Of a stretch of 64,000 nucleotides of DNA, positions 22,186-31,735 are shown piece after piece. The position numbers were made by a program, and so were the translations under genes. Origin of the DNA: Malacoraja senta (taxonomy: Eukaryota); the NCBI GenBank assembly GCA_038087875.1, contig CM075992.1, forward strand, positions 3,846,001 through 3,910,000. The letters are read 5' to 3'. How positions within the stretch are numbered: the stretch's first letter is position 1; each line of letters begins with the position of its first letter. The notes below the pieces were generated by a model. The model was not told the origin of the DNA, made no database searches, and saw only the letters and a list, made by a program, of their open reading frames with translations.

Positions 22186-22389
22186 ATGGAGCATTGGAGG
22201 CAGTGTGCCAACTGGCTGATCATCTGTAAGGTGCTGCCGCCCAACCACCGCGTGACCTGGGACAACGCTCAAGTGTGTGACCTCGCCTGGGCGCTGAGGG
22301 ATGGGGTCCTTCTCTGCCAGCTTCTCAACAACCTGCAACCTCACTCCATCAACCTCAAGGAGATCAACCTACGACCTCAGATGTCCCAG
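22186..22389 (+). CDS. VAV-family guanine nucleotide exchange factor (VAV1/VAV3-like), coding exon 1, CH domain
   Basis: GAGATGG start, 204 nt, CAG|GTGGGT donor. [68 protein letters not shown] is a typical VAV N-terminus. Confidence 0.97.
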
Positions 22390-22524
22390 GTGGGTTCAAA
22401 CCCTTTGCTGACCCACCCCCCCCCCTTCCATCCCATCTCCACCTCGGTTCCCTTACCTCAGGCTGGTGGGCCTTGGGTTAGGGGTAAAGCCCCTCAGAAT
22501 GTCAGGCAGGGGCATGAATTGAAT

Positions 22525-22670
22525 TCTTCTTCTACTTCTTCTTGCGTATGGCGTGCACAGCCTAAAGTTGTAAGACAACTTGTTCTGTTTGATCTTGTGT
22601 TTGTGCACGCCGGGTTGATTGCATTCGTTGAAACAGGGTGGACCATATGAAGGTTGCAATCTCCCACCCC
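22525..22670 (-). mobile_element. Short (~146 bp) non-autonomous Ingi/Vingi-like retroelement with ribozyme head and (GAA)n tail
   Basis: 12-bp TSD CATGAATTGAAT (22513-22524, 22671-22682); tail CGCAAGAAGAAG; homologous copy at 31595-31735. Confidence 0.8.
22617..22670 (-). ncRNA. HDV-like self-cleaving ribozyme (predicted)
   Basis: GGGGUGG-GA-GAUUGCA-ACC-UUCAUAU-GGU-CCACCCU-GUUUCAA-CGAA-UGCAAUC: P1 7 bp with G1-U wobble, P2 7 bp, P3 3 bp, 7-nt L3, J4/2 CGAA. Confidence 0.8.
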
Positions 22671-22984
22671 CATGAATTGAATACATTTTATTAGCCAAAG
22701 GTAGACAAAAATGCTGGAGAAACTCAGCGGGTGAGGCAGTATCTATGGAGCGAAGGAAATAGGTCACCAATTCCTTCGCTCCATAGATGCTGCCTCACCC
22801 GCTGAGTTCCTCCAGCATTTTTGTCCACCTCCGATTTTTCCAGCATCTGCAGTTCTTTTTAAAAAATGTTATTAGCCAAGTATGTACTCATACAAGGAAT
22901 TTGCCTTGGTGCTTTGCTCGCAAGTAACAACACGAGATACAGTAGACAATAAAAAATAAAACATTATAATTTAATTATAATTTA

Positions 22985-30790: not shown

Positions 30791-31594
30791 TAACAGCGGA
30801 GTGGAGAGCCAATTGGTCTGCACAGGTCTTGTGACCTCGACCGGGTATACCATCAGATCCCGGCGCTTTCCGAGGGTTCACCCCACTGAAAGATCTTCTG
30901 ACGCCGGACTCTGTGACTTTGACTGTAACACCGTCAGGGCGAATAGGGGCTCGGGAAGGCACATCAGTGTTCTCCCTATCGAACTGTGCGTAGAACGCAT
31001 TGAGCTCGTCAGGGAGTGATGCTATTGTGGACGGCTCGAATTGTAATCATGTCTGGAACATATGACAATAAAAAACTCTTGACTTGATTTCACATGAAAC
31101 TGGTGTCACCGGCCCGACTAATGGATAGGGTTTCTCTTTGTGCCTTGTGAAAATGTTGCAACTACTGAAATACATGCCCGCCAGCCACGTAAATTGAACT
31201 ATTCAAATCCACATCCTCTATTTCAAGAGGTTCCCTCGGTCAATGTCAATAGATACACCATTCGTCAGAATATTCTAGTGGCATCTAGTTCCCTTCGAAA
31301 CTAACAACCTCCTGCAGCCTCGTAACAAATGGTGAAAATTAGCTCTGAACTAACAGACTGACAGAGTATTCTGTGATAGATACAAAATGCTGGAGAAAAG
31401 GGTTCTGTGTCTACCCTGTCTCATAATGTTATCTACTTCTTTCAAGTATAAAAACAGGTATAACAACTTATATACTTCTTTCAAGTCCTCTCCCATCGGG
31501 CAAAAGGTACTGAAGTGTGTAAACATACACACCTCCAGATTCAGGTCCAGTTTCTTCCCAGCTGTTATCAGGCAACTGAACCATCCTACCAACT

Positions 31595-31735
31595 TCTTCT
31601 TCTTCTTATGTACGGCGTGCACAGCCTAAAGTTGTAGGACAACTTGTTCTATTTGATCTGATTTGATTGTGCATGCCAGGTTGATTGCATTCGTCGAACA
31701 GGGAGGACCACGTGAAGGTTGCAATCTCCCACCCC
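31595..31735 (-). mobile_element. Second copy of the short Ingi/Vingi-like element
   Basis: Collinear with 22525-22670; imperfect TSD ACCAACT/ATCAACT. Confidence 0.75.
31683..31735 (-). ncRNA. HDV-like self-cleaving ribozyme, second copy (predicted)
   Basis: GGGGUGG-GA-GAUUGCA-ACC-UUCACGU-GGU-CCUCCCU-GUUCGA-CGAA-UGCAAUC; same fold with one P1 mismatch. Confidence 0.75.

Follow-up and report, generated by a model that had tools for sequence, protein, structure and literature searches.

This locus raises the question of what kind of element is inserted at 22525..22670 (minus strand) of the window, by which we mean the whole 64,000-nt stretch of Malacoraja senta DNA analyzed here, and of whether a ribozyme sets the first base of that element's RNA. 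A first-pass annotation had proposed a ribozyme-headed, SINE-like family that borrows the reverse transcriptase (RT) of a Vingi/Ingi element. The explanation that we favor, and regard as quite probable overall, is that the insertion is an internally deleted copy of a Vingi-like LINE (here called V2), with a minimal HDV-like head that likely self-cleaves and with RT supplied by that partner LINE.

The insertion in VAV and its family

The window holds a whole, non-autonomous element that ends in a (GAA)n tail (22525..22543, with one substitution) and is flanked by a 12-bp target-site duplication (TSD). One copy of the TSD (22671..22682) directly adjoins the first element base, G1 (22670), just as the first-pass annotation had it, and the other (22513..22524) lies beyond the tail. 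The placement that the annotation gave to the insertion, antisense and 135 bases into VAV intron 1, likewise holds, the coding part of exon 1 (22186..22389, plus strand) matching VAV proteins. The gene contains three further family copies, among them one in the same intron (31593..31735, minus strand, antisense, 88% identical); three of the four VAV copies are antisense and one, which is without 9 bases of the ribozyme core, is sense, numbers too small for a count of orientation. The sense copy (L109:1028-1155, plus strand), the only one found in the gene, lies just beyond the end of the window. Contigs of other organisms at the VAV insertion site diverge from the window at 22500, with 30 further letters compared. 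About 15 bases from the TSD begins a very abundant long-hairpin repeat of MITE-like form (22698..22858), whose miRNA matches in Rfam are sub-threshold only.

That the family has a high copy number, as had been proposed, is evident from exact matches in the 1.94-Gb genome: a 22-mer from the head occurs 5,426 times and one from the tail 4,951 times, and the reversed control of each occurs 0 times. Capture-recapture over the first 31.65 Mb of contig C1, with 44 coinciding among 100 head and 92 tail matches, puts the family at ~11,000 copies or more, the estimate being a lower bound. The family was also found in four public runs from four organisms. Thirty copies, the window copy among them, were taken as the best scorers in a search with only the 3' half; 26 of them start at nt 1, three at nt 2-3, and one at nt 17. 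The 5' ends are thus uniform at G1 (29 of the 30 start at nt 1-3), as had been predicted. In a larger set of 116 near-full copies, search-selected and not blind, TSDs (modal length 11 bp) flank 99, as compared to 10 when the flanks are swapped, and 81 of these 99 end no more than one base from G1. The dispersed copies, their own TSDs, and the LINE-type tail show that retrotransposition of the family itself has spread it. Conservation among copies is not taken here as evidence of selection, because the copies were chosen for their similarity and accumulate neutral mutations once inserted. Neighboring copies less than 50 kb apart lie on the same strand in 25 of 36 pairs (p 0.014 at one of five cut-offs), five pairs possibly being the two ends of one LINE; at 100-400 kb the same-strand test revealed no effect.

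Origin from a Vingi-like LINE

The partner LINE was found with a pattern in which DNA other than the element's own lies ahead of its 3' end; this search led to L203. Forty copies were read from 595 first-look candidates, all of them degraded; 38 of the 40 have the last ~40 bases of the element at their end, and the element's head is present in eight, two in line (~2.8-3.1 kb upstream) and six inverted. In L293, the head, remains of the ORF, and the tail lie inside one TSD pair. The LINE is ~3 kb long, with a single ORF bearing APE and RT domains that survives as degraded pieces in L293 and L298. An RNase H (PF00075) search gave no match in four L298 pieces or in the sister-family copy L270, and the positive control L141 did match. 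The inverted heads (L282, L290, L292, L315, L316, and L318) are turned against the body as in twin priming.

Alignment of the window copy to this LINE assigns 22592..22670 to the LINE 5' end (72 of 79 columns identical to L293) and 22525..22578, tail included, to its 3' end (42 of 44 columns identical to L282), leaving ~13 unmatched bases between them. The element is an internally deleted, bipartite derivative composed of the first ~79 and last ~45 bases of one LINE, and has no ORF. Because head and tail both come from one LINE, it does not qualify as an independent SINE. A SINE-like family that recruited the ribozyme as a new head, and has only its tail in common with the LINE that lends it RT, could account for the middle bases that match neither LINE end and for the excess of the short form (~11,000 as compared to 595 first-look LINE candidates), but we consider it very improbable: the 5' end of the LINE itself constitutes the head, which eight LINE copies carry, a second deletion derivative has a different junction (L195, L200, and L213), and L293 by itself largely refutes such a history. 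Derivation from the partner LINE thus preserves one part of the original proposal, the dependence on a Vingi-like RT, and removes the newly recruited head and the foreign RT. The claimed absence of tRNA A and B boxes was confirmed by a regular expression, which found neither box in the window element, and a tRNA search was also empty; the small-RNA head by which SINEs are classically recognized is missing.

Pattern matches for heads joined to other DNA numbered 73, and the 30 that were read are deletion variants or broken copies, with no LINE among them. Two RNase H-type LINE families with (GAA)n tails, presumably Nimb-like, were considered as partners and rejected, as they share the tail only and fall outside the clade of the partner. 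Two young LINE families that have two ORFs and a (GAA)n tail are represented by L141, L144, L150, and L154; one of the two has many intact 1277-aa frames that include RNase H.

A loop-motif search and a search with the partner's APE piece recovered eight sister LINE families and a short family, B. In the RT tree all nine LINE families fall in one clade (19 of the 27 rows, support 97/98, one short row having been dropped), apart from the RNase H-bearing, CR1-like, and L2-like rows. An HDV-like head can be parsed in seven of the eight sister families, or eight of the nine LINE families with the partner included; the one without is V9, represented by a single degenerate copy. The partner RT groups with that of V1, a family with an uninterrupted 1014-aa APE+RT frame (L270:3133-6174, minus strand), a head that by eye resembles Vingi-2_Gav, and relatives among which are anole and sea urchin APE+RT proteins of ~1000 aa. 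Vingi is distinguished from Ingi by its lack of an RNase H domain, according to the accessible part of PMC13708176. We therefore speak of the partner as Vingi-like, a clade name that rests on architecture and head likeness.

Some minor observations accompany the sister families. A V8 copy (L375) has a 986-aa frame, and both V1 and V8 may be recent families. Short family B (L237, L227-L232, and L241-L247; e.g. C2:191895166) measures ~150-170 bp and is laid out like the window element, with a P4-less head, J4/2 CCAA, an end-to-end stem of at least 12 bp, a (GAA)n tail, and TSDs. Vingi-like pieces of near-identical frame length (352 aa) recur in L382, L383, L385, and many small contigs, possibly as part of a satellite or segmental repeat. 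A metagenome scan yielded two V1-like contigs, with their 5' ends missing.

The element is thus a real SIDE of a Vingi-like LINE, ordinary in design and with an unusually small predicted ribozyme. The same design, a 5' HDV-like ribozyme joined by internal deletion to a LINE 3' end, is described in the available text of PMC3414825 for the R2 SIDEs of Drosophila, which however are rare and confined to rDNA, whereas the present family is dispersed in ~10^4 copies, depends on an APE-type LINE, and has a 54-nt P4-less ribozyme. The NARTc, RIME, and SIDER elements of trypanosomatid L1Tc/ingi are likewise short and keep a 5' HDV-like ribozyme, active in vitro in NARTco and several SIDERs, and Ingi is the sister clade of Vingi (PMC4035085, PMC3383444, and PMC3185411, as far as their accessible portions state). 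As given in the same portions, these elements belong to protists, their 77-nt head includes P4 and acts as a promoter, and L1Tc encodes RNase H; the present family, unlike them, has a vertebrate host, a partner with no RNase H match, and a (GAA)n tail. Closest in composition are the bipartite Vingi-1_EE derivatives of Kojima 2018 (PMC5786205, available part), which also unite the 5' and 3' ends of a Vingi LINE. By eye, L3, J1/4, and J4/2 have the same layout in the 5' ends published there for Vingi-2_Gav, Vingi-4_Crp, Vingi-2_SPur, and Vingi-1_BF; within the part of that paper available, Vingi is not among the ribozyme-bearing clades listed, and end-to-end pairing is not mentioned for the bipartite derivatives. 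Ribozyme-headed, internally deleted elements are already on record in what is accessible of PMC3414825, PMC4035085, and PMC6765202. R2 and trypanosome elements already show this combination of a ribozyme with a LINE 3' end, so that the family taken by itself adds modestly to what is known. Our literature searches retrieved no paper that links Vingi to HDV-like or CPEB3 ribozymes or that describes end pairing, parts of which Kojima 2011, Ruminski 2011, Repbase, Dfam, or patents may cover; PMC8233481 has no occurrence of "Vingi" or "retrotranspos-", and a literature search on cartilaginous fishes returned nothing on Vingi.

A predicted P4-less ribozyme at the head

Element nt 1-54 (22617..22670, minus strand) form a predicted minimal, P4-less ribozyme of the HDV/CPEB3 type, with the predicted cleavage site immediately 5' of 22670. 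On the minus strand the parts follow one another 5' to 3' as P1, J1/2, P2, P3, L3, P3', P1', J1/4, stub, J4/2, and P2', and all stem positions are paired: P1 joins 22664-22670 to 22635-22641 by a G1.U wobble and six Watson-Crick pairs, P2 joins 22655-22661 to 22617-22623 (7 of 7), and P3 joins 22652-22654 to 22642-22644. The 7-nt L3 loop occupies 22645..22651, J1/4 is GU, a 5-nt stub replaces P4, and J4/2 (22624..22627, CGAA, of the form C-N-A-A) carries the putative catalytic C at 22627, each of these stems, loop, stub, and joint lying where the first-pass annotation had placed it. Together with P1.1, which in this head is one Watson-Crick pair, the stems make a nested double pseudoknot in the HDV-like order. 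The pair at the cleavage site, where HDV-like ribozymes have a wobble or purine-pyrimidine pair at the RNA 5' end, is G1.U36, and the J4/2 C (C44) is present in 115 of the 116 search-selected copies and in 9/9 family heads. A strict fold descriptor found two matches in 263 kb of real DNA (window included), both of them family copies, and none in 5.26 Mb of dinucleotide shuffles, and it was passed by 0 of 20,000 shuffles of the 54-nt head. Rfam returned no ribozyme match for the window head (E up to 10) or for another copy, L108.

L3 has the 7-nt length first noted, but in the window this loop is a CpG-decayed variant. Loss of a CpG on both strands (22646-22647) has left A at position 25 (22646), where 93 of the 116 copies and all nine family heads have G, and the G25.U20 reverse wobble present in the family consensus is absent from the window copy. 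In the HDV-like ribozyme of C. briggsae, G25A permitted no observable cleavage after 60 s (PMC13635239, available part). Because this change cripples another HDV-like ribozyme, the window copy is probably a weak cutter, by analogy, and the family consensus is therefore the better test object for cleavage. A role in VAV expression, with the copy co-opted to cut an antisense transcript or the pre-mRNA, is suggested by its position 135 bases from exon 1 but strikes us as extremely unlikely, given its antisense orientation and G25A, its differences from relatives, which are ordinary CpG decay, and the three further copies in the same gene. Its sequence and orientation (G25A, antisense to VAV) instead make it likely that the window copy is a passive, weakened insertion.

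Comparison across families bears on the fold more widely. Nine heads were compared (seven sister LINE heads and two short families), parsed by hand to fit the fold and from related families, so that the pair counts lean toward it: pairing is seen at 59/63 positions of P1, 56/63 of P2 (a count lowered by a mis-set register in V8), and 27/27 of P3, values reached by 0, 1, and 43 of 100,000 strand permutations, respectively. The stems differ among families with their pairing retained, so that the fold covaries across the sister families. J4/2 is C-N-N-A in 9/9 heads, and the main P1.1 pair is C-G in eight and U-A in one.

The 5' ends of V1 (L267:6415-6498, minus strand) and V3 (L275:6248-6336, minus strand) match the whole Rfam CPEB3_ribozyme model with 61.3 and 59.7 bits, against a cut-off of 35; at the Rfam gathering threshold, there was no match to this model in the V5 head (L355) or in the short element's head. 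The element head shares its L3, J1/4, and J4/2 letters with V1. The CPEB3 ribozyme (RF00622) is a single conserved intronic ribozyme with P4, whereas the element head has other stems, no P4, and goes unscored by the model. On sequence likeness, the CPEB3-like sister heads point to a possible transposon source for the mammalian CPEB3 ribozyme; literature searches, whose scope lay outside Repbase, Dfam, patents, Kojima 2011, and Ruminski 2011, found no paper stating such an origin. An HDV fold without P4, like that of the element head, is known from minimal HDV-like and theta ribozymes, which by the available text of PMC10879173 cleave in vitro, are ~99% confined to phages, and are tied to tRNA processing; in contrast to those phage-associated forms, the element's predicted ribozyme heads a vertebrate retrotransposon. 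The present heads would extend 5' HDV-like ribozymes to the whole Vingi-like clade, including a P4-less form for which nearly all reports come from phages (PMC10879173, same part).

On the modeled fold, the head likely self-cleaves and so sets the first RNA base. In integrated copies, G precedes G1 in 12 of 65 cases, as compared to 20% in the flanks, and is therefore not in excess; among copies of SVA, whose RNAs are capped, about a third (~33%) carry such a G (PMC3287187, accessible part). Because there is no cap-type G excess, unlike in SVA, an uncapped 5' end is indirectly supported. An alternative of the same origin makes the head mainly an internal Pol II promoter (compare Pr77 of L1Tc), with a stub-P4 ribozyme that is vestigial or too slow. 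Uniform starts at G1 would fit a transcription start site, and the loss of P4, the failure of Rfam to detect the head, and the absence of a strong strand bias also agree with this account; we nonetheless think it improbable in view of the stems that vary between families with pairing retained, the confinement of common variants in four other runs to positions 24, 25, 32, 42, and 45 (among the rows listed), the missing G excess, and the in vitro cleavage by P4-less HDV-like ribozymes (PMC10879173, available text). Pr77 itself is both promoter and ribozyme, according to the available portion of PMC3383444.

Two observations concern the bases around the head. T precedes G1 more often than expected (34/65 copies, p 1e-4), as the last TSD base or as an extra base, perhaps the trace of an A added without template to the end of the cDNA. 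In the partner LINE (L293:1367-1680 and L298:1076-1963), no stop interrupts the reading frame across the ribozyme, and an ATG where J4/2 meets P2 is in frame with APE, an arrangement that may be relevant to how translation starts.

Predicted pairing between the two ends and a proposed mechanism

V1, V2, and B were the families in which arms able to pair across the two ends were first noticed. In the window copy, nt 60-69 (22602..22611, minus strand), from the LINE 5' UTR, are predicted to pair in 10/10 positions with nt 112-121 (22550..22559, minus strand), from the LINE 3' end, and the 3' part of the copy folds with z = -3.6, none of 200 shuffles being equally good. With 35-nt windows anchored at the ribozyme end and at the tail start, and one copy per family, cognate ends pair at -18.8 kcal/mol on average, as compared to -9.9 +/- 3.6 for non-cognate ends, a result equaled in 0 of 200,000 permutations. 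For the seven other (held-out) families, with all copies included, the corresponding figures are 2/5040 permutations (25 nt) and 5/5040 (35 nt); all ends had been looked at before this held-out test, the V9 boundary was set by eye, and V9 and V10 contribute one copy each. The families are not alike in this respect: V7 has no end pairing in these windows, V5 pairs weakly, and V3 pairs more weakly when more copies are used. In favor of the pairing, an A.C mismatch at nt 61 of LINE copies is a G-C pair in 88 of the 116 short copies, although this counts as one event. The bases that follow the ribozyme are thus predicted to be complementary, family by family, to those that precede the tail.

In the mechanism that we propose, read-through transcription of host DNA would make the element RNA, the ribozyme would cut before G1 and leave an uncapped RNA, and pairing of the 5' and 3' arms would fold the RNA into a closed rod; the partner APE/RT protein would then recognize this RNA and carry out target-primed reverse transcription from the (GAA)n tail. 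More tentatively, and with less than even confidence, we suggest a closed RNA in a stronger sense, in which the ribozyme cuts the exact 5' end, the bases behind it pair with the pre-tail bases, and both ends form one Vingi recognition unit, so that the element would be a minimal RT template and the CPEB3 ribozyme a tamed Vingi 5' end. If true, this would explain why the Vingi-like clade yields bipartite minis rather than tail-only SINEs, the 130-base element would be a minimal natural template for the Vingi RT, and a vertebrate genome would hold P4-less ribozymes at ten thousand copies. Family-specific end pairing offers a testable answer to a question posed in the available part of Kojima 2018 (PMC5786205), namely why bipartite elements arise in some clades only. 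It is also relevant to gene-insertion tools built on Vingi, in which the donor RNA includes both UTRs (PMC13708176, accessible part).

The 5' arm may be non-essential, because copies that have lost it through an 18-nt deletion occur with TSDs (18 of the 116 search-selected copies, a selection enriched for such deletions). This deletion is recurrent, lies between two short direct repeats, and is seen in two subfamily backgrounds (L162, L165, L174, L178, L181-L187, and L189).
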